From a virus (Duplodnaviria > Caudoviricetes): DNA of 55,421 bases. The DNA is taken from positions 1-55,421 of the IMG/VR virus record IMGVR_UViG_3300044729_001120. One strand, given 5' to 3'. The notes beneath the pieces were generated by a model that was not told where the DNA came from, searched no databases, and worked only from the letters and a program-made list of their open reading frames with translations. Shown piece by piece: positions 1,875 through 51,191 of this stretch (position 1 is the stretch's first letter; the number at the start of each line of letters is the position of its first letter). The translations under genes and the position numbers were made by a program.

Positions 1875-2696
1875 ATGAGCGCCACTACCTACACTAAAGG
1901 TTATGGTGAAGGCGCTTGGGGCATTAATGGCTTCGGGGGCATAGCCCCTGCTTATGCGGTAGACGGTGTAGCGGGTACGGGTGCGGTAGAGCCTGTCACT
2001 ATCCTTGTAACCAAGGTAGTTGCGGTAACAGGTGTCTCCGGCACTGGCAGCGTTGGCGATATATCCCTGCAGATTAACTCCACGATTGTCCCAACGGGTG
2101 TTCAGGGCGTCGGTGAAATAGGCGGGTTCCAAGTCGTCGTAGATGACATTGTGATCCCCATAGGTGTTTTTGGTACGGGCGCAGTTGGCACAGTTGCTAT
2201 TGCGGTCAACGATACGGTGGTTGCGACTGGCATTGAGGGAACAGGAGCCGTTGGCACTGTCTCGATTGCAATAAACGCAACGGTCGTAGCCACAGGCGTA
2301 GAAGGCACAGGCGCGGTTGAAGACGTCGCCCTGCAGATAGACAGCAACGTCACCCCAGTGGGCGTGGCGAGCACGGGCGCAGTTGGCACAGTAGTTTTAG
2401 TATACGATGCAGATGTTACGGCCACCGGCATTGAAGGCACGGGCGCGGTAGGCACAGTTGCGATACAGGTTAACGATACGGTTATCCCCGTGGGGGTTAG
2501 CGCAACCGGCGCGATTGGGCAGGTTCAGATAGCGGTAAGCGAGCTTATAGTCCCCGTCGGAGTAGCTGGTGTAGGCGCTGTTGGTAATGTAAGAATAATT
2601 GGTTGGAACATCGTAAACGATGCGCAGACACCGAACTGGAATGAAATAAACGATGTTCAAACCCCGAATTGGATTGAAGTAGACGACGCTGCGTAG
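1875..2696 (+). CDS. Repetitive Val/Gly/Thr-rich tail fibre-like protein
   Basis: 273 aa with about ten ~22-aa repeats (V.TG(I/V).GTGAVG.V); GAGGTG RBS. Confidence 0.6.
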   Translation: MSATTYTKGYGEGAWGINGFGGIAPAYAVDGVAGTGAVEPVTILVTKVVAVTGVSGTGSVGDISLQINSTIVPTGVQGVGEIGGFQVVVDDIVIPIGVFGTGAVGTVAIAVNDTVVATGIEGTGAVGTVSIAINATVVATGVEGTGAVEDVALQIDSNVTPVGVASTGAVGTVVLVYDADVTATGIEGTGAVGTVAIQVNDTVIPVGVSATGAIGQVQIAVSELIVPVGVAGVGAVGNVRIIGWNIVNDAQTPNWNEINDVQTPNWIEVDDAA

Positions 2697-40244: not shown

Positions 40245-41729
40245 GTGGCGTTTATGCACATGGATCCCAAGGAAGTTGAGGCGCAGCGGTTGAGGCTGGA
40301 GTTGAGGCTGGCGTTGTTGGATCGTCGGGAGAGGAGCAAGGCTAGTTTTCTGGACTTTGCGCGGTACGCTTGGCCGGAGGCTATTTTCTCGGCGCATCAC
40401 AGCAAGATGGCGGATGCGTTTGATCGGATCATCAGTGGTGATCTCAAGCGGCTGGTTATCAACATGCCGCCGCGTCACACGAAGAGTGAGTTTGGCTCGT
40501 ACTTGTTGCCGGCGTATGCGATGGGTCGAAAGCCGGACTTGAAGATAATTCAGGCAACGCACACGGGCGAGCTTGCGGTTCGCTTTGGTCGCAAGGTGCG
40601 TAACCTGATGGACACGCAGAACTACAAGGATCTGTTTGAGGGGGTTGAGCTGCAGGCTGACAGTAAGGCGGCGGGGCGGTGGGAGACGAGCAAGGGTGGT
40701 GAATACTTTGCGGTGGGTGTTGGTGGTGCGATGACGGGACGGGGCGCTGACCTGTTGATCATCGATGACCCTCACAGCGAGCAGGACGCGATGTCGTCGC
40801 TGGCGCTTGATAATGCGTGGGAGTGGTACAGTGCGGGTCCTCGCTCGCGGTTGCAGCCGGGCGGGGCGGTTGTTGTGATCATGACGCGCTGGGGGACGAA
40901 GGATCTGACTGCTCGGCTGATCAAGAGTCAGAACTCGTTTGGCTCGGACAAGTGGGAGGTGATTGAGTTCCCGGCGATCTTTGATGAGGGTACGCCCAAG
41001 GAGCGTCCGCTGTGGCCGTCGTTTTGGAAGCTTGAGGAGCTGCAGGCGGTGCGAGCTCAGCTTGGGGTGCAGCGCTGGAACGCGATGTACCAGCAGCGTC
41101 CGACGGCGGATGAGGGTGCGATTCTCAAGCGTGAGTGGTGGCGGACGTGGGAGCGTGATCAGTTGCCGTCGGTTGAGTACATTATCCAGTCGTATGACAC
41201 GGCGTATTCCAAGAAGGAGACGGCGGACTACTCGGTGATCACGACGTGGGGGGTGTTTTACCCGACGGAGGATGCGGGTCCGAATTTAATTCTGATGGAC
41301 ATGCGCAAGGGTCGCTGGGACTTTCCTGACCTAAAACGCATTGCGAAGGATCTGTACACGTACTGGCAGCCGGACAACGTCCTCATTGAGGCGAAGGCGA
41401 CGGGCACGACGCTGCAGCAGGAACTACGGCGCATGGGGATTCCGGTAACGATGTACAGCCCGGGTGGTCGCCGTGCTGGTCACGACAAGGTGTCGCGCGC
41501 GAATGCAGTCGCGCCGATGTTCGAGTCGGGCATGATCTGGGCAACCGAGGATCACTGGGCTCAGGAGGTGATCGAGGAGTGTGCTGCCTTCCCGAACGGG
41601 GACAATGATGATATCGTTGACAGCACGACGCAGGCTCTGCTGAGGTTTCGCGCTGGGAACTTTATTTCGTTGCAGTCGGACGAAGAAGACGAGAGCAGTG
41701 ACGAATCGCTTGTGCCGGAGTATTATTGA
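40245..41729 (+). CDS. terL: Terminase large subunit
   Basis: INMPPRHTKS (Walker A variant), GRGADLLIIDDP, MTRW, YQQ.P, SYDTA...DYS, IEAKATG, FPNG..DD.VD. Confidence 0.95.
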   Translation: MAFMHMDPKEVEAQRLRLELRLALLDRRERSKASFLDFARYAWPEAIFSAHHSKMADAFDRIISGDLKRLVINMPPRHTKSEFGSYLLPAYAMGRKPDLKIIQATHTGELAVRFGRKVRNLMDTQNYKDLFEGVELQADSKAAGRWETSKGGEYFAVGVGGAMTGRGADLLIIDDPHSEQDAMSSLALDNAWEWYSAGPRSRLQPGGAVVVIMTRWGTKDLTARLIKSQNSFGSDKWEVIEFPAIFDEGTPKERPLWPSFWKLEELQAVRAQLGVQRWNAMYQQRPTADEGAILKREWWRTWERDQLPSVEYIIQSYDTAYSKKETADYSVITTWGVFYPTEDAGPNLILMDMRKGRWDFPDLKRIAKDLYTYWQPDNVLIEAKATGTTLQQELRRMGIPVTMYSPGGRRAGHDKVSRANAVAPMFESGMIWATEDHWAQEVIEECAAFPNGDNDDIVDSTTQALLRFRAGNFISLQSDEEDESSDESLVPEYY

Positions 41730-41766
41730 GTTAAAATATCGTAAATTTTGCTAAGGCGGTGCCGAC

Positions 41767-44700
41767 ATGCCCAATTTAACTGCGCGAGAGATGTTGTTAC
41801 GGCTTCCGATGCGGATGGCGGAGGGTGGAGCGGTGGACACGGCTCCGGGAGTGTCGGCGGCGTATCGCAGAGCGATGCAGGTCGGCGGTCAGCAGACGGT
41901 TGACGACTACTACGCCAATCTTCGTGCTGATGCAAAGGCGTACCTTGCCAATCCCAACGCGCCGACTGGCGCTGAGGCGTACAACGTGCTGCTGCAGTCT
42001 GGCATCAGCACCTCTGACCTGATCAATGCGGGCGTGGATCAGGCGGTGCTGGACAAGATCTTTGCGGTCAAGATGCCGATTATCCCGCAGTCGCAGTTTG
42101 TGACGCCAACTGGCATGACCTCGGCGTATGAGCGCAGTCCCGATCTGGCGTTTGAGTCGCAGCGCTTAACCGCGCAGGGGCAGGATGGCCGGGCGATACT
42201 AGACAAGCAAGGCCGTGACTACATTGCGAACCTGCAGCAGGGCGGCATTGATGCGGCTGAACGTGCGCAGATGCTGGAGTACGCTACTGAGCGCGGGTAC
42301 TCGTTTGATGACCTGATGAAGGCCGGCGTGGATCCCAATGTGCTTTTCACCCGTCCGCAGGCTGCTCCGCCACCGCCCCCGTTCCCCGATCCCGTGCCGT
42401 ACACGCCGATAACGGTGTACCAGCCGCTGCCGACGCAGCCCGACATCTTTGCTGCTGGGCAGCCTGCTCTGGACACGACGTTCAGGGAGAGCTCTCCGCG
42501 CACCGCGATCCCCGGCATGCCGGGCCAGTTCGACTACAGCCCAGCGGCGAAGTTAAGACCCGCAACAGGCGCAGGCTTTACCTTCACGCCGCCAAGCGTG
42601 ACCTCTCGTCCGCGCTCGTTACTAAGCCCGAGGGAGATCCAAGCCTACGGCGGGCTGACGTCGGCCTCGCAGCGTTTTGCGCAGAACCGACAGCTGTTGG
42701 ACAACAACCTGCGCAGGCTGGCGCAATCAACACCCGCGCTTAAAGACCTTAAAACCTACAATCAGCTGCGCAACATGATGATGTCGAGTTATTTTGCTGC
42801 TGACCCCAACACGTTATCAGATCCCCTCTTGGCGTTTGACCCCAAGACGGTTGAGGGGCAGAACCTTCAAAAGTACCTTGCTGGTTTGCCTGCGCCCAGC
42901 ACGCAAAAGCCTGATCCCATAGTTGTCACTGACGGCATGACCGGCAAGGACGTTGAGATTGACGCGCCTGTGTACGGTGGCTTTTTGCCCTTTGCCAAGG
43001 GCGGCTACGTAAAAAAGTCTGATGGGTCGGCAAGGGATGGGCTGGCTCGCTTTCAGGAAGGCGGTGAGGTTAGTGGTCGCAGGCCGCTGAGTCCGAATGA
43101 TCCGTTGTACATCAGGCAAGATGCGCCTGTTAATCTAGATGAGCTACGGCGCCGGCAGCTGGGGGATGTTGCCCCCGCAGCCGATGCGCAGTTGCCGCTA
43201 GACGAACTGCTGCGTCGTCAGCTGGAGGGTATCGACAACACGCCGTCAACGGCGCGAACTGCAGGATCGCAGCAGAGCGAAAGCCGCAATATGCTGCAGA
43301 ACATTGTCGCTGGCGCTAAGCAGATCCCCGGCACTGTCTTTGACTACGGCAGGGGCATTGCGCAGAGCGAAAATCCCTTGGCACAGATTCGCTCTGATGT
43401 TGGTGCGATGGGCGGGGCGATGATAGAGGGCGCCAAGCAAGACCCATTGGGCTTTGCTTTGGACATGACGCCAATTATCGGTGAAATACGATCTGGCATG
43501 GACGCAAAGAAATACTCGGACATGGCGAATGAGGCTGACAGGGCTGGAGATTATGAACTTGCTGACAGCTACCGGCAGGTTTCCACGATGGCAGCGGCAG
43601 GAGCAGTTCCCTTTGGCGGCATCGGCGCTCGCGGCGCGCGACGCGCGGCAATGAGTGATATGGCTGATGTGCCGCCAGACAGCGCCAGAGGGATGCTGGA
43701 CGCGCTAACGCCTGAAGCTGGCGTTGACGCCCCAAGAACACCCGGCGAAGACGTTGACGCCTTGACTGCACTGGACCAGCCGCCGGCAGGCAGTGCTGCG
43801 GCGATGTTGGATGAGGTGGATGCTGCGGCCCCAAGCGCCAGATTGAGTAGAGATGAGCTTGGCAGGATAAATGCCAGCGTTGGCTCTAATAGAATTAAAC
43901 AGCGGGCCATGAAAGAAGAGACTCGAAGAATTAAAAATAACTTTCTCCCTGATGATGGCTGGGAAAGGATTAATTTTTCAGGCGTTAAAGAAAACAAGCC
44001 GGATTTTAAAAAAATAGCCTATGGGTTTCAAAAGCCTCCAGAGGGGCTTGATAAGGGAGAGTGGGCAAATCGTCTTTCTGACAACTTAGTTTCAGAGGTA
44101 GACGGGGTAGTGCAGCGCGCACGATCAGGAGATCAGGCAGCAATTGATATACTGCGGCAGGCTAATTGGTATCGTGGAATGCGAGACCAGCTGCGCTCCG
44201 AGTTTGGAGGCATTGGTGACGTTTTTGCAGACGTACTTGGCACAACGAGCGCTCAGACAAATGTAGAGCAAAATTTCCGTAACGCCACTGAAATATTGCG
44301 CAGATATAGCCGGGGAGAGTTTGACACTGAGCTGCAAGCTTATGAAAACAGAATAAAACAAGGCATCCCTGTGGATGGAAAAACTTTAACTGCGTTGCAC
44401 AAAGCAGGAGAATTTCCGTTAATTACCAACTCCGCTGGGAAACTATTTAACACAAACAGCCCGTCCTCAATGGGGGCGCTGCTGGACATGTTCCGATCAG
44501 TAAAGACTGGTAGCGCGCCAAAAACACCAAACTTTACCGGCAACCTTATTGGCCTTACCAATGAAGCAACAGTAGATGTTTGGGCAGCACGAATGCTGCG
44601 CAGGCTTTCGGGACAGTCGCGCATACCGCCTGTGGCTGAACAAGGGGTCACCGGAACTCACTTGGTTGGATCCAGTCTTGGGAATCCAAGGGTTGGTGGC

Positions 44701-47700
44701 GAGTTCGGTTTTGGTCAAGATGTCTTTAGAAGTGCTGCAAACAGGATTAACGAATCTGGTAACGTAAAGTCTGTTGTTCCTGAAATGGGCGATCTTGGTC
44801 CTGACGACCTGCAGGCGGTTGCTTGGTTCATGGAAAAAGAAAGATGGACAAACAATGGCTGGACAACAAAAGCCGGTGAAGGCGGATCTCTTGAATACGA
44901 AATGTCCCTAGCCGGAAGCCCGGATCAAGTTCGCATTGATGATTTGCGTCGAGAAATTAATACAGGCTTTAAAACCCCAAATAAAAGAAAAAAAGAAACT
45001 GATGCCGAATATGCAGAGAGAGTAGCTCAAGCAAGGCGCGTCTATGACAACCGGCAGGAGCTGGCAGGCATAGAACTGCAGTCGCTTCAGGCCCCGCTGC
45101 AGCGTTATACAGTTGGCGTTTCTGGAGAGCGTCCTGATTTGCCGATGAGTAATTACGCTCAGGCAGAACTTGCAGCTGAGATTGATGACGTGGTTCGTAA
45201 TGATTCTTCAGTGCTTGGATATAACCTTGCTAATACCTATGGATCTTTCATGGGAAATACAGAAAGAGCATTAAATGCTGAATTTGTAGTCCAACAAAAT
45301 TTTAATCCAAGTGCTTTGATTAGAAGACTGGTTGAGCAGGGTAAAAATTACAATCAGGATGCCGTATTCATATCTCGCTCCGTTCCTGCTGGCTCTCCAA
45401 ACGCAAGGCCGGGGGCAGAGATATTTTTTAAAGAAGAAATATCTCCGAAGGAGCTTGCCAAGATTACAGCTCGTTTAAGGGAATATGGAGTGGACGGATT
45501 TACTTATATAACAGACATGAGGTTTGATGACAGAATCAACCGTCAGGCTCGATCAGGAGCTCCCGAGACGGCAAAATTAACTGGATTGCGGTTCCAGTAC
45601 ATACCTGAATTTGACGAAGGATTTGACCCAAGACGCGCTGATGAGATTTATAAAGAAAAAGAAGATTTGTTTGCAGCGATTCTTGCGGATACAATGGCAG
45701 ACCAAAACGTATCTGACATAAGATATAATTTTTACGATACGCAAGTCTTTTTTAGGGATGGCTACGATGAGTACCTTACAAGAAATACTCCAGCGAGTGG
45801 AAGCCAAGCAGGGGGAGAAGTCTCCAGTGGCGCAGGCTCTGCGCAATCAAATCGCGGCAGAGAAGGGCAAGCAGAGCTTCCAGAACCTGTACGTGACCGG
45901 AGCGGTCAAGCGGCCCGCGCAAGCCCCCAAGAAGGCATAGATAACTTCGCCAAAGGCGGCGCAGTCACCTCCTCGCGTCGCATGCTAGAGAACCTCATTG
46001 GAAAAAAGCCTGAAGGCCAGCGCGTTGATGCGACTGGCCTGCTTGGCTTTGCCAATGGTGGAGAGGCTCGTGTAGGCGGCAGCGCCCCAGCAGTTGCTGG
46101 CCGCACGGGCAGGGCTGCTCAACTAGCAGCACAAAGGGCAGAGGAACCACAGACTGAAAGCCGCGCCATGCTGGAGCGTTTAGATGCGGCCACGCCTGTT
46201 GAGCGCGCCGTGTTTGAATCAACGGGCATGGAGCCGGGTCTGGACAGAGCCATGATGTTACCCTTTGCGGGCAGCCGTGAAGAGGGGAACCTGCAGCTTG
46301 CCGCGCCGGGCTTTGTCTACGACGCAGCAAGGGCGTTTGTCACCCCGGGCATGGCCGCCAGAGGTCAGCGGGTGTCGGATGAGGACATCCTTAACACTGC
46401 TATGAACGTCATGGGCGGCGGCGTAGGCGCGAGTCGAGTTGCAGGGCCTAGAACCGCTCCGGACGAAATGCTGCTGGGTATGGGGGTTGGGTCGAATGTT
46501 ATAAAATTGGGGAATACGGGCGGAAGTAACGCACGTAACGCTGCGGATGAGTTAAAGGAGATTTTTGCAGAAAACCCGCTTAATTCAAGGGAGTTGATAA
46601 GCAACACGGCAGGTGCAACAGTGTACTCAATGGGAGACACGCTACACCTGTCTGATATTCGTACATTCGACCCCGGAAAAGGTGGGGCATCAAAAATGTT
46701 GCGCAGCATTTTAGAAGTTGCAGACAAAAACAATGTCCCTGTTACATTGACCGCAGACAATTATAGTGGGGATGGACTTACCACAGCACAACTTGTTGAC
46801 TGGTACAAACGCAACGGCTTTGAGGTTGAAAACGACTTTGGGGATGATGGCGTAGACATGATCCGTCAGCCTAGAAATATTACTGAAGAGGCTTCCGGTG
46901 CAGCTAGGTCTACACCAACCGCCGCTGACGACCTTGCTGCGTTGACGGATCGGGCTCCGACTACCAGTAGCATAGCTGCTAGGTCTGCGAATGTAGTAAC
47001 CGCTTTAAATAAAAGCGGAGACCCTTTAGGCATAAACGTAGCCGTAGATCCGCGTAACGGAACGGATTACGCGGACCTTATTGTCAGCGGCGCTAAAAAG
47101 TTTGAAAGCCGAGAGACAGCATCCCTAAAGCCTTACGTGGGTAAGAGAGTAGGTATTGTGCGTACTGGTGCAGGTCAGGCAGAAGTTATAGGCTCTGTTG
47201 AAATAGGTCAACCTATTAAAGTTAATGAAAAACAGTTTAATCAGCTTAGGGATCAACACCTAGTTGCAGAAGATTCTTCGTTTAACATTAAAAAAGGCCA
47301 AACTAAATTCCTTTATCCCATGATAGACCCCACATCTACGCCTCCTCAAAAAGTCACGTCTAAAGGAATTGTAGCTAGGGCTATCCCCACCGGGCAAAGG
47401 GCCGCCGACGACCTTGCTGCGTTGACGGATCGTGCCCCCAAGCTTATTGATTCATTGCCGGGAAGAAACGAATTAAATTATTGGATTGATGGTGGTCAGG
47501 ACGCAGTTGAAAGAGGGTTCCCTGAAGAGCCTTTCATCCTCTTAGACAAACTCTACATTGACCCGCAAAACAGAGGCCAAGGCGCTGCTCGACAAGTGCT
47601 AGTAGAAGGCTTGCAAGAAATGGCAGAGCAATATCCCGGTATGGACGTTAGGCTTTTGGCCGAGCCACTTGATAGATCAACAAATCAAAGTGACCTAGTA

Positions 47701-47901
47701 AGGTTGTATGAGTCTGTTGGGTTTGAGGTTGACAATTACCAAGATGGAATGAGCTCAATTCCGATGTCTCTACGACTTCCCAAAAAAGTCGCAAGGACTG
47801 GGGGCAACACACCACCCGCTGCACTAGGCTACGCCAAAGGCGGCGCAGTCACCAAGAACAACGTAGAACGCATGCGCAACGATAATCGAAAGTATCTTTA
47901 G
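41767..47901 (+). CDS. 2044-aa modular (polyvalent) protein: HhH-glycosylase-like domain, two GNAT-like domains and an ASCH-like domain
   Basis: WY...SAQTNV..N...PKT.NF..NL.G...TVDVW..R...LQA..W; LSDIRT..PGKGGAS...LVDWYKRNGF; YADLIVSGAKKFESR; LYIDPQNRGQGAA...LVRLYESVGF. Confidence 0.65.
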   Translation: MPNLTAREMLLRLPMRMAEGGAVDTAPGVSAAYRRAMQVGGQQTVDDYYANLRADAKAYLANPNAPTGAEAYNVLLQSGISTSDLINAGVDQAVLDKIFAVKMPIIPQSQFVTPTGMTSAYERSPDLAFESQRLTAQGQDGRAILDKQGRDYIANLQQGGIDAAERAQMLEYATERGYSFDDLMKAGVDPNVLFTRPQAAPPPPPFPDPVPYTPITVYQPLPTQPDIFAAGQPALDTTFRESSPRTAIPGMPGQFDYSPAAKLRPATGAGFTFTPPSVTSRPRSLLSPREIQAYGGLTSASQRFAQNRQLLDNNLRRLAQSTPALKDLKTYNQLRNMMMSSYFAADPNTLSDPLLAFDPKTVEGQNLQKYLAGLPAPSTQKPDPIVVTDGMTGKDVEIDAPVYGGFLPFAKGGYVKKSDGSARDGLARFQEGGEVSGRRPLSPNDPLYIRQDAPVNLDELRRRQLGDVAPAADAQLPLDELLRRQLEGIDNTPSTARTAGSQQSESRNMLQNIVAGAKQIPGTVFDYGRGIAQSENPLAQIRSDVGAMGGAMIEGAKQDPLGFALDMTPIIGEIRSGMDAKKYSDMANEADRAGDYELADSYRQVSTMAAAGAVPFGGIGARGARRAAMSDMADVPPDSARGMLDALTPEAGVDAPRTPGEDVDALTALDQPPAGSAAAMLDEVDAAAPSARLSRDELGRINASVGSNRIKQRAMKEETRRIKNNFLPDDGWERINFSGVKENKPDFKKIAYGFQKPPEGLDKGEWANRLSDNLVSEVDGVVQRARSGDQAAIDILRQANWYRGMRDQLRSEFGGIGDVFADVLGTTSAQTNVEQNFRNATEILRRYSRGEFDTELQAYENRIKQGIPVDGKTLTALHKAGEFPLITNSAGKLFNTNSPSSMGALLDMFRSVKTGSAPKTPNFTGNLIGLTNEATVDVWAARMLRRLSGQSRIPPVAEQGVTGTHLVGSSLGNPRVGGEFGFGQDVFRSAANRINESGNVKSVVPEMGDLGPDDLQAVAWFMEKERWTNNGWTTKAGEGGSLEYEMSLAGSPDQVRIDDLRREINTGFKTPNKRKKETDAEYAERVAQARRVYDNRQELAGIELQSLQAPLQRYTVGVSGERPDLPMSNYAQAELAAEIDDVVRNDSSVLGYNLANTYGSFMGNTERALNAEFVVQQNFNPSALIRRLVEQGKNYNQDAVFISRSVPAGSPNARPGAEIFFKEEISPKELAKITARLREYGVDGFTYITDMRFDDRINRQARSGAPETAKLTGLRFQYIPEFDEGFDPRRADEIYKEKEDLFAAILADTMADQNVSDIRYNFYDTQVFFRDGYDEYLTRNTPASGSQAGGEVSSGAGSAQSNRGREGQAELPEPVRDRSGQAARASPQEGIDNFAKGGAVTSSRRMLENLIGKKPEGQRVDATGLLGFANGGEARVGGSAPAVAGRTGRAAQLAAQRAEEPQTESRAMLERLDAATPVERAVFESTGMEPGLDRAMMLPFAGSREEGNLQLAAPGFVYDAARAFVTPGMAARGQRVSDEDILNTAMNVMGGGVGASRVAGPRTAPDEMLLGMGVGSNVIKLGNTGGSNARNAADELKEIFAENPLNSRELISNTAGATVYSMGDTLHLSDIRTFDPGKGGASKMLRSILEVADKNNVPVTLTADNYSGDGLTTAQLVDWYKRNGFEVENDFGDDGVDMIRQPRNITEEASGAARSTPTAADDLAALTDRAPTTSSIAARSANVVTALNKSGDPLGINVAVDPRNGTDYADLIVSGAKKFESRETASLKPYVGKRVGIVRTGAGQAEVIGSVEIGQPIKVNEKQFNQLRDQHLVAEDSSFNIKKGQTKFLYPMIDPTSTPPQKVTSKGIVARAIPTGQRAADDLAALTDRAPKLIDSLPGRNELNYWIDGGQDAVERGFPEEPFILLDKLYIDPQNRGQGAARQVLVEGLQEMAEQYPGMDVRLLAEPLDRSTNQSDLVRLYESVGFEVDNYQDGMSSIPMSLRLPKKVARTGGNTPPAALGYAKGGAVTKNNVERMRNDNRKYL
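45758..45940 (+). CDS. Candidate overprinted small helical protein nested (+1 frame) inside the 2044-aa gene
   Basis: MATMSTLQEILQRVEAKQGEKSPVAQALRNQIAAEKGKQSFQNLYVTGAVKRPAQAPKKA*; AGGGA upstream of the second ATG (45767); the host frame here is low-complexity linker. Confidence 0.5.
   Translation: MATMSTLQEILQRVEAKQGEKSPVAQALRNQIAAEKGKQSFQNLYVTGAVKRPAQAPKKA
45948..47853 (+). repeat. 22-bp direct repeat CGCCAAAGGCGGCGCAGTCACC (45948-45969 and 47832-47853)
   Basis: Identical copies 1884 bp apart (in frame), encoding AKGGAVT. Confidence 0.85.
46921..47438 (+). repeat. 38-bp imperfect direct repeat (46921-46958 and 47401-47438) flanking the ASCH-like domain
   Basis: 35/38 identical, 26-bp exact core GACGACCTTGCTGCGTTGACGGATCG, 480 bp apart, encoding AADDLAALTDRAP. 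Confidence 0.9.
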
Positions 47902-47910
47902 GACACCGAC

Positions 47911-50277
47911 ATGCCCATAGACAAGGTAGTAAATCTAGCCCCGAGAACCGACCTCATCGAGATTGGTGAGGAGGACGGTCAGGACATTGAGATCATCATT
48001 GAGGATGACGGCAGTGCTCTGATTGAGATTGGCATGGGCGATGAGGAGCAGGGTTTTTACGACAACCTTGCGGACAGCATCGATCCGCAGGATCTTGGGC
48101 ACATCTCCATCACGCTGCAATCTCTGTTCGACGCGGATAAGAGCTCTCGCGGGCAGTGGGAGGAGATGTACGCCAAGGGTTTGGACCTGTTGGGCCTGCG
48201 GATGGAGGATCGCACGCAGCCGTTCCGTGGCGCGTCGGGCGTTGTGCATCCAATGCTGACCGAGGCCATCATTCAGTTCCAAGCGCAGTCGTTTAAGGAG
48301 CTGATGCCAGCGGGTGGTCCTGTGCGAACGCAGACACTGGGCAAGGAAACTCTGGATAAAGTCCAACAGGCTGCACGTGTACAGGATTTTATGAATTACC
48401 AGATCACGGCTGTGATGAAGGAGTACACGCCGGAGTTCGACCAGCTGCTGTTTTACACCGGATACGGCGGCTCTACCTTTAAAAAAGTGTACTACGACTC
48501 GCAATTGGGTCGTATGGTCAGTCGTCTGGTGCTTGCCGACGACCTTTACATCCCCTACCACGGCTCGAGCGTGATTTCTGAGTGTCGGCGCATCACGCAC
48601 CGCATTGCGATGGACTCAAACGAGTTTAAAAAGCGTGTTTACGCGGGTGAATATATTGACATTGAGGTGTCTCCTGACGGTTCTGGTATTTCGCAGGATC
48701 AAATTGGTGCCACCATTGACCGAATTACCGGCATGCAGTCTGCTGGCGAGCCAGAAGAGATCGCTTTGCTGGAGTTTCACGTCGATTTGGACATCCCCGG
48801 CTACGAAGACGTGGACGAGGACGGCGAACCGACTGGGATCAAGCTGCCGTATGTGGTTACAACCGACGAAACCAGTGGTCGAGTGATCAGTGTGCGTCGA
48901 AACTGGGCAGAAGAAGACCCTCTGCACCTTAGAATTGAGTATTTTGTGCATTACATGCTCGTTTCTGGCCTCGGTGCCTACGGTTTGGGCTTTGTGCACC
49001 TGATTGGCGGCCTTTCTAAGACTGCAACCTCTGCACTTCGTCAGTTATTGGACTCTGGCACGCTTTCTAACCTGCCTGCGGGCTTCAAGGCCAAGGGCGC
49101 GCGGATCGCGGACGACGACAAGCCCATCCAGCCGGGTGAATGGCGTGATATTGACGCTGGTGGGGCTGAACTGGCCTCATCACTGCTGCCGTTGCCCTAT
49201 AAAGAGCCCAGCCAGACTCTATTTGCGCTGTTAAGCTTCACCGTGGACGCCGGCAGACGTCTTGCCAGCATTGCAGACATGCAGGTAGGCGACGCCAACC
49301 AGCAAGCGGCAGTGGGCACCACTCTTGCGCTGCTTGAGCGCGGCTCAATGGTGATGAGCGCCATCCATAAGCGCCTGTACTACGCACAGACGCAAGAGTT
49401 TGAGATGCTTTTCCGAGGTTTTGGTCAGTACTTGCCCCCCGAGTACCCCTATGATGTACCGGGAGCGTCTCGTTTAATCAAGCAGTCTGACTTTGACAAC
49501 AAGGTTGCCGTGCTGCCGGTTGCTGACCCCAATATCTTCTCCGCTGCGCAGCGCATCACCTTGGCACAGACCCAGCTTCAGCTGGCGCAGAGCGCGCCAA
49601 ACATGCACAACATGTACGAGGCGTACTACCGGGTTTACCAGTCGATGAACGTGAGGGACATCGACGGCATTCTGAAGACCCAGACCAACCAGATGCCCAA
49701 GGACCCGGCAAGCGAGAACATCGATGCGATTGACGGCAAGCAGCTTAAGGCGTTTGCCGGCCAGCAGCACGACTCGCACATTGCCTCGCACCTGATCATG
49801 GGGCTCTCGCCCTTGGTGCAGGGCAACCCGCTGGCCGCTGTTGAGTTGCAGAAACACGTCATGGAGCACGTTAAGCTCAAGGCAGAAGAAGACGCCGAGG
49901 CCGAGCTGTTCCGTCAGTACGGCAGCGACCCTGACCGTATGGTCTCCGACATGCAGCGTGAGGCGATGATCTCGCTCAACATTGCTCAGTACCTGATGGA
50001 CGTCAAGGCGATGCAGACAACGCTCTCTGGCGAGGGAGCCGGCGCACCTGACCCGGTCATCGCGCTCAAGGAGCAGGAGCTTCAGCAGCGCGCGGCGAAG
50101 GATCAGGCTGAAATACAGCTCAAGCAAGAGGGATTGAAGAACGAGCAGATGCGCATCCAAGAGAGCTCACAGGCCAACGATGAGCGCATTGCATCGCAGG
50201 AGAAGATCGCTCAAGGGCGGTTTGAAGTTGCCAGAGAGCGCATTAACACACCAAAACAAGGCCCGGGGGGTGCGTGA
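47911..50277 (+). CDS. Portal protein
   Basis: 788 aa; SR..WE..Y.KGL.LLG, PF.GA..V.HP, DFMNYQ, FKKVYYD, GFKAKG, GTT.ALLE.G. Confidence 0.88.
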
Positions 50278-50732: not shown

Positions 50733-51191
50733 ATGCAACCAAAGCTGACAGCTCTAGAACAGAAATGGGCAGACGATAAGGCCAACCAAAAACCCTCGCT
50801 GAACGATGCCTACACAGATGATGGCACTGTTCCAGAAAGCGGTCTCACACAAAGCGTCTTAGACTTGATACCGCAACCGACTGGGTGGCGCCTTGCGCTG
50901 CTACCTTACCGGGGTGCCGGTACGTCAAAGGGCGGCATTGTGCTGACCAAAGAAACAACTGAACGCACTCAACTGGCAACAAACGTGGGCTACGTGCTCA
51001 AGCTTGGACCACTCGCCTACGCGGACGAAAGCAAGTTCCCCGACGGCGCATGGTGCAAACCCGGTGACTGGGTGGTGTTTGGTCGTTACGCGGGCTCCCG
51101 CATCCAGATTGAGGGCGGTGAGATTCGCCTTCTGAACGACGACGAGATTTTGGGAATTGTGTCCGATCCTGCAAGCATTTTGCACAAGTGA
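50733..51191 (+). CDS. groES: GroES-like co-chaperonin
   Basis: PTGWR, SKGGIVL, VLKLGP, GDWVVFGRYAG, LLNDDEILG. Confidence 0.85.
   Translation: MQPKLTALEQKWADDKANQKPSLNDAYTDDGTVPESGLTQSVLDLIPQPTGWRLALLPYRGAGTSKGGIVLTKETTERTQLATNVGYVLKLGPLAYADESKFPDGAWCKPGDWVVFGRYAGSRIQIEGGEIRLLNDDEILGIVSDPASILHK

Follow-up and report, generated by a model that had tools for sequence, protein, structure and literature searches.

A conserved +1-frame gene candidate embedded behind a cassette of phage polyvalent virion proteins, and its predicted binding to that cassette

The window analysed here is IMG/VR virus record IMGVR_UViG_3300044729_001120 at its full length of 55,421 bases (completeness estimate 96%), and our subject is a small open reading frame (ORF), termed orfX, that lies inside a large virion-protein gene of this phage. 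The enclosing ORF, P0001, encodes a polyvalent protein, in which unrelated domains are joined in one polypeptide between the terminase large subunit (TerL) and the portal protein, and whose relatives carry ART-PolyVal and InPase domains. Its own domains are a cassette of about 670 amino acids (aa), a weak ASCH match and a GNAT domain at aa 1924-1988 (28.5 bits; cut-off 27). An ORF of 60 aa at 45758..45940 on the + strand is in the +1 frame relative to this main ORF; its region starts on the main-frame codons for ...FFRDGYDEYL, and its TAG stop (45938-45940) falls two bases before D-N-F-A-K-G-G, with F1394 at 45946. Over the orfX bases the main-frame translation is TRNTPASGSQAGGEVSSGAGSAQSNRGREG..., and the G+C content of this linker is 0.61 against about 0.45 in the cassette. 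A preliminary description of the DNA had reported a +1-frame ORF behind the cassette that stops just before an FAKGG motif, together with its peptide sequence, a low-complexity main frame over the same bases and an AGGGA upstream of the ATG at 45767, and all of this holds in the sequence and the ORF list. It had, however, placed the start at 45758, which has to be corrected: the conserved start is at 45767, the upstream ATG is found in only some relatives, and 45758..45766 is probably outside the gene.

Viral contigs were searched with the protein upstream of the ORF, giving a first set of 29 loci, 27 of which reach far enough. All 27 have an open +1 ORF whose ATG matches 45767 in position and encode a homologue at 45-100% identity, whereas main-frame identity over the same bases is lower, ranging from no match to 92%. 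A second search with the orfX alignment found 101 relatives, of which 80 were kept. Both sets together hold orfX in 106 of 108 loci (69 distinct sequences), and the cassette lies directly upstream, one frame back, in 104 of these 106; the co-occurrence of the peptide with homologues of the upstream domain, a check proposed when the ORF was first described, is therefore found. The two loci without an upstream cassette are L107, where orfX is at the locus edge, and L108, which is discussed below. An ATG is present in all 69 distinct segments, lying one codon upstream in L055/56 and L104/105, and the only length difference examined (L104, L055) is a whole codon. The ranges of identity are alike for orfX (45-100%) and the cassette (44-100%). 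We conclude that an intact orfX is conserved after the cassette in every related phage examined that reaches that point, and that its link is with the cassette upstream, not with the downstream modules, which differ or are absent.

Selection was analysed over 50-codon windows in a set of 62 distinct loci with the ATG at the aligned codon; rows with fewer than 672 upstream codons, the four rows with the ATG one codon upstream and those with a main-frame stop within 33 codons were left out. The +1 frame has no stop over the overlap in any of the 62 loci, as compared with stops in 27-62 of 62 in 57 control windows placed in the cassette. For 22 unique sequences, the ratio of nonsynonymous to synonymous differences (pN/pS) over the overlap was lower in the +1 frame (0.445) than in the main frame (1.48), and over 300 nucleotides (nt) of the upstream cassette the order was reversed (main 0.39, +1 1.21); substitutions in these sequences are at their maximum at the third codon position of the +1 frame. 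The 62 loci show the same, with pN/pS over the overlap at 0.45 for the +1 frame as against 1.37 for the main frame and the 57 cassette control windows giving 0.12-0.39 in the main frame and 1.04-2.13 in the +1 frame. Purifying selection shifts from the main frame to the +1 frame at orfX. The preliminary description had named stops in the +1 frame of homologues, or purifying selection in the main frame only, as findings that would speak against a gene here; the former are absent and the latter is the opposite of what we observe.

The signals for initiation are also conserved. The Asp codon that gives the AT of the ATG is GAT in 62 of 62 loci, as against a GAT fraction of 0.23-0.92 at 19 other conserved Asp columns, and the main-frame codon that follows it always begins with G (GAG 33, GCT 20, GAT 6, GAA 2, GTT 1). 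Likewise, the Arg codon that gives the Shine-Dalgarno (SD)-like AGG or AGA is AGR in 0.95 of the loci, against 0-0.62 at 24 other conserved Arg columns, and the SD variants AGGAG, AGGGG, AGGGA, AGAGA and AAGGAG are found at the same place in relatives. In L025-L028 there are +1-frame stops 2-4 codons before the ATG. The start codon and SD of orfX are thus kept beyond the needs of the main frame, and on this comparative evidence we take orfX to be a real, separately initiated embedded gene. A promoter scan of 45300-46100 found no promoter-like site and one terminator-like site, which is on the minus strand and within chance expectation; with no sigma-70-like promoter near it, orfX is presumably translated from late mRNA. 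The positions of orfX and of the features around it are collected in Table 1.

Table 1. Positions of orfX, its signals, the cassette and the surrounding features in the window.
Feature	Position	Strand	Basis or remark
orfX, embedded +1-frame gene	45767..45940	+	57 aa and TAG; conserved ATG at 45767
AGGGA, Shine-Dalgarno-like	45754..45758	+	8 nt before ATG 45767; from main-frame codons AGG (Arg) GAT (Asp)
Extra upstream ATG, not conserved, with the two codons after it (M-A-T)	45758..45766	+	residues before the conserved Met vary
Main-frame low-complexity linker (TRNTPASGSQ...SPQEGIDN), overlapping orfX	45778..45945	+	open in main frame; without purifying selection
Cassette, about 670 aa, P0001 aa 664-1337	43756..45777	+	AlphaFold2 (AF2): predicted local distance difference test (pLDDT) 91.7, predicted template modelling score (pTM) 0.88 (67 sequences)
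Cassette N-terminal helical half, residues 106-362, weak HhH-GPD-glycosylase-like fold	44071..44841	+	VIA-align
Cassette C-terminal tandem alpha/beta half, residues 448-659	45097..45732	+	AF2
Cassette last helix (625-646) and last strand (652-666), main predicted orfX docking surface	45628..45753	+	AF2 and complex model
Host ORF P0001, 2044-aa polyvalent virion protein	41767..47901	+	ORF list and domain scans
Terminase large subunit, upstream neighbour of host ORF	40245..41729	+	phrog_38, E 9e-116
Portal protein, downstream neighbour of host ORF	47911..50277	+	phrog_1216, E 6e-40
FAKGG-like motifs of P0001 (aa 409, 1394, 1428, 2022)	42991-43005, 45946-45960, 46048-46062, 47830-47844	+	[FY]A[KN]GG then A/Y/E-V
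Other alternative-frame ORFs in host gene	41825..42022, 43481..43654, 44576..44767	+	ORF list

The pairing extends well beyond the close relatives of the window. A cassette profile matched 920 cluster representatives, many of them in proteins of 2000-4100 aa; the effector domains of polyvalent proteins found in relatives of the host protein are ART-PolyVal, InPase and RelA/SpoT, and three of the representatives carry ART-PolyVal, InPase and DUF7178, which makes these proteins polyvalent in the sense of PMC5512222. A locus search with a distant cassette profile gave 442 relatives, of which 80 were kept, and a single-protein locus search with P0259 gave one weak locus. The distant loci that reach the cassette end all have a +1 ORF (for example MSTLIEQL..YGSDNPYV..LKEQL, MPSQLELLK..GPDNPFVKGLKAQI and MTNSS..GSDSLSSRMLKAEIAR), with an ATG in 25 of 26 after AAGGA or AGGAG. 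These distant +1 ORFs are orfX homologues (hhalign probability 97.2, E 3e-11, 50 columns), and pN/pS in the distant clades is 0.48-0.69 in the +1 frame and 0.92-1.12 in the main frame. A combined orfX model matched 77 of the 80 loci, always in the +1 frame, the three misses being truncated loci; 22 distant loci found by the combined model alone also helped to build it, so that their independent support is the hhalign homology. Across the cassette-search loci that reach the 3' boundary of the cassette, orfX spans that boundary in 96 of 96. The preliminary description had proposed that the cassette was captured as a pair with its small gene, which was then kept by overprinting. The pair does exist; however, it is universal across the cassette family, including proteins with more than 1000 further main-frame codons, and its embedding is therefore not special to this phage.

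A main-frame motif, W.GQ.[IV]R.G[LV]E.A..R, lies about 20-40 codons past the cassette end in L113-L145 and L185-L190 and, in alignments of giant polyvalent proteins, has the look of a conserved helix. Its bases are exactly those that encode the conserved G.D.P.V..LK.Q[LI] in the +1 gene, and since the DNA of the distant loci holds an orfX homologue in the +1 frame, this main-frame 'conserved tail' is its shadow. Other 'conserved linker motifs' in such proteins can likewise be shadows of another frame, which we offer as a warning. We also considered orfX as a displaced copy of an in-frame C-terminal helix and rejected this: the orfX hidden Markov model against 150 representatives gave a best E of 0.034, and hhalign of orfX with the distant tails gave a probability of 0.3. 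A comparison of the main-frame tail with the distant tails was set aside too, as its hhalign probability of 61 covered YDEYL and about 15 residues only.

The degree to which orfX is embedded varies. Among the 69 distinct sequences, the main frame after the ATG stops before the orfX end in seven (at 6, 16, 32, 33 or 47 codons, with L027/L028 stopping after 33), stops within 25 codons past the orfX end in 41 (typically 70 codons against 57) and continues into differing modules in 19 (FAKGG..., SKKSSRPVNEQLGID..., an ASCH-like module and others); L107 and L108 make up the rest. In L104 orfX is almost free-standing, as the main ORF stops 6 codons after the orfX start, the 1117-aa cassette protein ends ...TYDEYLGK and the gene for an internal virion protein begins at a start that shares bases with the orfX stop. 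In a tree of the cassette built from 63 loci with 8 outgroups, the window-clade fusions to downstream modules group in one subclade of 21 rows, with seven state changes overall.

The second locus without an upstream cassette, L108, is a 5.5-kb contig of a metagenome-assembled genome (MAG). Here orfX lies at 1877..2050, and a 175-nt stretch that holds only the SD and orfX (region 1861-2050) is 99.4% identical to viral locus L019. Its neighbours are an FGase gene, two ORFs and, on the other strand, a D5_N/PriCT-2 (P4-type) primase gene. No cassette was found on this contig or in its incomplete 2.2-Mb MAG, nor at E<=1e-10 in 401 sampled genomes of its phylum. The end of the ORF downstream of the L108 orfX (2068..2514) resembles the C-terminal extension of P0021, a 112-aa member of the orfX family.

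Modelled alone by AF2, the orfX product forms two helices (4-15 and 20-44) with a low-confidence tail (mean pLDDT 72.3). The hairpin is followed at the C-terminus by a conserved motif, LY(V/L)TG(A/S)VK(R/K)P, and an alignment of 21 distinct peptides shows M1, L4, L8, G16, R26, Q28, I29, Y42, T44, G45, K48 and P50 to be invariant. The peptide is basic (10 K/R against 4 E) and has neither Cys nor a hydrophobic segment. It had been called helix-turn-helix (HTH)-like, which is roughly apt for a helical hairpin; no DNA-binding HTH family matched it, however. Gene callers have called 297 proteins of the orfX family, of 52-112 aa, all 'hypothetical' and without a Pfam domain, and the 21 members that we scanned had no consistent Pfam or PHROG match. 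Several matches to the peptide were discarded as not reproducible, namely EAD10 (E 0.033, with the 60-aa form only), phrog_9675 (E 0.03, in 1 of 21 members) and seven Pfam families (each in one or two of the 21), and the ESM Atlas gave no usable match to it. Four longer members, P0022, P0035, P0066 and P0086 (103-108 aa), have a conserved C-terminal extension of about 45 aa (..QPSQTEQDHVLDLLRQFNMPITRENYLDLAYPEGLPEDWG..), as if a second small domain were fused.

In the AF2 model of the cassette the two halves listed in Table 1 are separated by a long helical hairpin (residues 386-447), and D274, W276 and R279 form an invariant motif. The cassette had been described as glycosylase-like; VIA-align matched residues 106-362 to Tm1821 8-oxoguanine glycosylase (3n0u_A; Z 7.4, root-mean-square deviation 4.2, 178/209 aligned) and to MagIII (1pu6_A; Z 5.7, 180/217 aligned), both below the tool's caution level for helical models. 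There was no accompanying signal in the sequence: Pfam scans of 16 cassette members gave no glycosylase family, the cassette sequence matched no PDB profile at E<=1 (with TPR-like noise only at E<=10). Its ATVDVWAARMLRR may resemble a glycosylase catalytic-Asp motif. Foldseek with the cassette model found nothing in the PDB at E<=1e-3. Residues 448-659 matched porter subdomains of RND (resistance-nodulation-division) pumps with Z up to 10.1, in the tool's warning range, and these matches probably reflect a common tandem alpha/beta arrangement. We therefore treat 'glycosylase-like' as a weak structural lead only. The family DUF7178 (PF23802), on which our literature search found no paper, matched the cassette of the window in its helical N-terminal half at 24.6 bits, under the 27-bit gathering cut-off; 15 of 16 cassette members match it at E<=1 (best 2.8e-5), and the distant relative P0184 does so at 32 bits. 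Look-alikes of the cassette in BFVD are uncharacterised 'large polyvalent protein associated domain' proteins.

A complex prediction, which the preliminary description had suggested, favours binding of orfX to the cassette. Three runs gave values of the interface score ipSAE of 0.85, 0.85 and 0.84, and the three controls gave 0.00; of the pairs used to calibrate the tool, 58 of the 80 solved complexes attain the mark, as do 2 of the 110 mismatched ones, counts that are only a rough guide here since the alignments were our own. At least 57% of contacts recur among the runs, with a partner pLDDT of at least 64. The predicted interface joins orfX residues 1-35, among which are most of its invariant positions, to cassette residues 629-647 and 654-659, with further contacts at 134-145, 343-345, 380 and 545-552, and both the fold and the complex models are confident for the N-terminal 30-35 residues of orfX. 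As the confident interface leaves out D274/W276/R279, blocking of an active site is not indicated. These models support binding of the cassette by orfX, which is very probably its cognate partner.

The arrangement suggests how the pair may work. The orfX gene starts on the last cassette codons and runs through the linker behind the cassette, and its product, a basic hairpin of 57 aa, would pack on the last helix and strand of the cassette and touch a conserved helix of its N-terminal half. The orfX start codon shares bases with the codons for the docking surface; the partner would therefore be made in cis, where that surface emerges, and the two could assemble co-translationally; and because orfX straddles the module boundary, cassette and partner would be inseparable during module shuffling. 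In the producing cell orfX may then be a dedicated clasp or chaperone that stabilises the cassette, keeps it quiet or hands it to the prohead, with its conserved C-terminal motif free to dock elsewhere. We consider this whole reading, of a separately initiated orfX that binds in cis and acts as a clasp or chaperone in the producing cell, to be reasonably probable. Several points weigh against it. Initiation inside an ORF that is under ribosome read-through is usually inefficient, and no RNA sequencing run is listed as containing this stretch. The predicted binding draws on model confidence obtained with our own unpaired alignments, and the invariant C-terminal motif (Y42, T44, G45, K48, P50) is outside the confident interface and is not explained by it. 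The orphan in L108 means that orfX may act without a cassette in cis, or may be an antidote. Finally, as the cassette has no assigned activity, a 'chaperone' is indistinguishable from an 'inhibitor' or a 'subunit'.

Two alternatives question whether there is a separate gene at all. One is that orfX is non-coding, being a chance ORF in a G+C-rich linker or a conserved RNA or DNA element. Its length is indeed within chance, as the host gene has three further + strand alternative-frame ORFs of at least 57 aa (57-65 aa), and the high G+C of the linker makes for longer chance ORFs; but substitution is codon-periodic with the selected frame switching at the overlap, no stop occurs there in the 62 loci and the length difference spares the frame, the family joins the distant clade by homology, its range of identity excludes near-clonal copies, and the fold and complex models are confident at the N-terminus, all of which makes a non-coding orfX extremely improbable. 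The other is programmed +1 ribosomal frameshifting at the cassette end, which would yield a cassette-orfX fusion beside the read-through polyprotein, with no independent gene. The two frames adjoin without a gap at the junction, orfX is predicted to dock on the C-terminus of the cassette itself, so that a covalent tail could fold back on it, and in prfB an SD-like element upstream of the shift site stimulates +1 shifting. We nevertheless find frameshifting very unlikely: the ATG is present in all of the close-clade segments and in all but one of the 26 distant loci, with an SD spacing of 7-10 nt, the +1-frame stops 2-4 codons before it leave almost no room to shift, orfX is free-standing in L104 and L108, and no conserved slippery or stalling motif was seen in the aligned junctions.

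Other alternatives accept the gene and concern what it does. The preliminary description favoured an immunity gene. On such a reading the cassette would be a harmful enzyme injected with the DNA, orfX would neutralise it in the producing cell and be left behind at packaging or ejection, and orphan copies in resident elements could protect a cell against the incoming effector. The strict adjacency and predicted binding of orfX, the ART-PolyVal, InPase and RelA/SpoT domains in relatives of the host protein, the weak DNA-glycosylase-like fold and above all the L108 copy, which resembles an orphan immunity gene and is the strongest evidence for an antidote, are in keeping with this. Toxicity and neutralisation are hypothetical, however, and the glycosylase match is weak and without sequence support; the confident interface takes in the last helix and strand and residues 134-145 and not the D274/W276/R279 motif; orfX is basic, hence not a DNA mimic, and is about as conserved as the cassette, without the hypervariability typical of immunity proteins. 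We regard an antidote as possible, if unlikely. A bolder version, which is doubtful, makes orfX a detachable safety catch on an injected nucleic-acid-targeting effector: made in cis, it would clamp the C-terminal face and be stripped at packaging or tail threading, so that the cassette is active only in the next host. If this were true, a resident mobile element that had captured orfX without the cassette, as in L108, would hold an antidote to the incoming effector, and a large family of polyvalent modules would each have a hidden overlapped regulator missed by gene callers. It is quite unlikely that orfX acts elsewhere, on head assembly, the portal, internal proteins or nucleic acid, with nothing but gene order putting it behind the cassette. 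Its position among the packaging and head genes, between those for terminase and portal (and beside an internal virion protein gene in L104), its basic character, its occurrence in L108 without a cassette and an invariant C-terminal motif that is outside the interface and similar to the FAKGG(A/Y)V motifs of the polyprotein would fit such a role, but orfX stays with the cassette while what follows varies (other modules, a stop and then the portal, or an internal virion protein), the nearest cultured relatives have other proteins in this slot and lack orfX, and the complex model passes where its controls score 0.00.

The nearest analogue in logic to a clasp encoded in this manner is lambda Rz/Rz1. 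Rz1 is embedded in the +1 frame of Rz with its own start, and its product binds the C-terminal part of the protein of the enclosing gene; orfX, too, is enclosed entirely by a larger phage gene, uses the +1 frame and its own start, and has a product predicted to dock on the C-terminal part of the upstream module. Rz1 is, however, an outer-membrane lipoprotein with a signal peptide and lipobox, features that orfX, having no Cys and no hydrophobic segment, does not share, and the host gene here is a 2044-aa virion polyprotein and not a lysis gene, with the overlap on a linker and not on a folded part. In context, the closest comparison is with pairs of an effector and its partner, be the partner an immunity protein or a secretion chaperone. 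Class I chaperones of type III secretion systems and the Lap proteins of LXG toxins are small helical partners encoded beside effectors, and orfX is alike in being small, helical, adjacent to an effector-like module that has to cross a narrow channel, and predicted to bind it. There is no sequence or fold relationship to them (8gmh was a generic hairpin match only in structure comparison), and the face predicted to be bound by orfX is the C-terminal one of an internal module. Frameshift products such as the tail chaperone G/GT and T7 10A/10B are known from phage morphogenesis and, as here, use two frames at one place in a late phage gene; in the case of orfX the conserved ATG and SD, the upstream +1 stops and the free-standing copies point to initiation instead.

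In polymorphic toxins, effector modules are shuffled and a small cognate immunity gene follows directly after. By gene arrangement alone orfX can be likened to such pairs, including MuF-toxin phage proteins, as it comes directly after a shuffled module and has one orphan copy (L108); it differs from them in being overlapping or embedded and not downstream, in following a module that is often internal and not C-terminal, and in being conserved and not hypervariable. MuF fusions of phage proteins are described in PMC5512222 (Iyer et al. 2017), as are polyvalent proteins, which the present host ORF resembles in its multi-domain make-up beside terminase and portal, with cassette relatives of up to about 4100 aa carrying ART-PolyVal and InPase. 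The words 'overlapping', 'frameshift' and 'glycosylase' are absent from the main text of PMC5512222, and no embedded partner gene was found described there, supplementary files aside. Our literature search on overlapping genes found no paper on the orfX-cassette system among those listed, and with the same limit as to supplementary files we found no earlier description of an embedded partner gene in polyvalent proteins.

Polyvalent virion proteins are regarded as the weapons that a phage delivers first, and most of their modules have no assigned activity. The cassette is among the commonest of these modules, with its 920 cluster representatives and 442 viral loci, and the gene across its 3' boundary, often wholly inside an ORF of thousands of codons, is outside the reach of standard annotation. 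Strong comparative evidence makes it a clear example in nature of one gene embedded in another on the same strand, and the arrangement suggests a possible reason for embedding, namely that the pair cannot be separated on shuffling and the partner is made where its docking site leaves the ribosome. It also offers a direct experimental handle on the function of the cassette.

The FAKGG-like motifs listed in Table 1 repeat at module boundaries of the polyprotein, in P0001 and in its relatives, and are similar to the invariant C-terminal motif LY[VL]TG[AS]VK.P of orfX; they could be processing or docking sites. The extreme C-terminus of the polyprotein (47830-47901, ..YAKGGAVTKNNVERMRNDNRKYL) resembles the ends of short cassette proteins (..ARGGLVERVYNDNRTYK) in L015, L020 and L021, so that a conserved terminal tag appears to be retained regardless of the intervening modules. 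The gene is also a mosaic of G+C content (window 41000-48500), with the N-terminal part and linkers at about 0.55-0.67 and lower values of about 0.41-0.52 in the cassette (43850-45800) and the C-terminal ASCH/GNAT modules (46550-47900), which suggests that modules were acquired from phages of lower G+C.

Searches of phage records gave no DNA match to the host gene, no match to the 60-aa ORF by tblastn in 50,697 records and, for the P0001 protein, GNAT matches only, in three records; the cassette is thus found in no cultured phage of this collection. By terminase, the nearest cultured relatives are Phage DSL-LC04 (76% identity) and pelagiphage HTVC027P (60%). Their terminase-portal slots hold a 'PcfJ-like protein' (DSL-LC04; L109, 10490-12967) and two hypothetical proteins (HTVC027P; L110, 10365-14496), in both cases without orfX, and injected proteins seem to be exchanged at this slot. 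Downstream of the portal in the head module of the window is a gene for a GroES-like co-chaperonin (50733-51191; phrog_3188, E 1.6e-16), which is annotated in DSL-LC04 as well.

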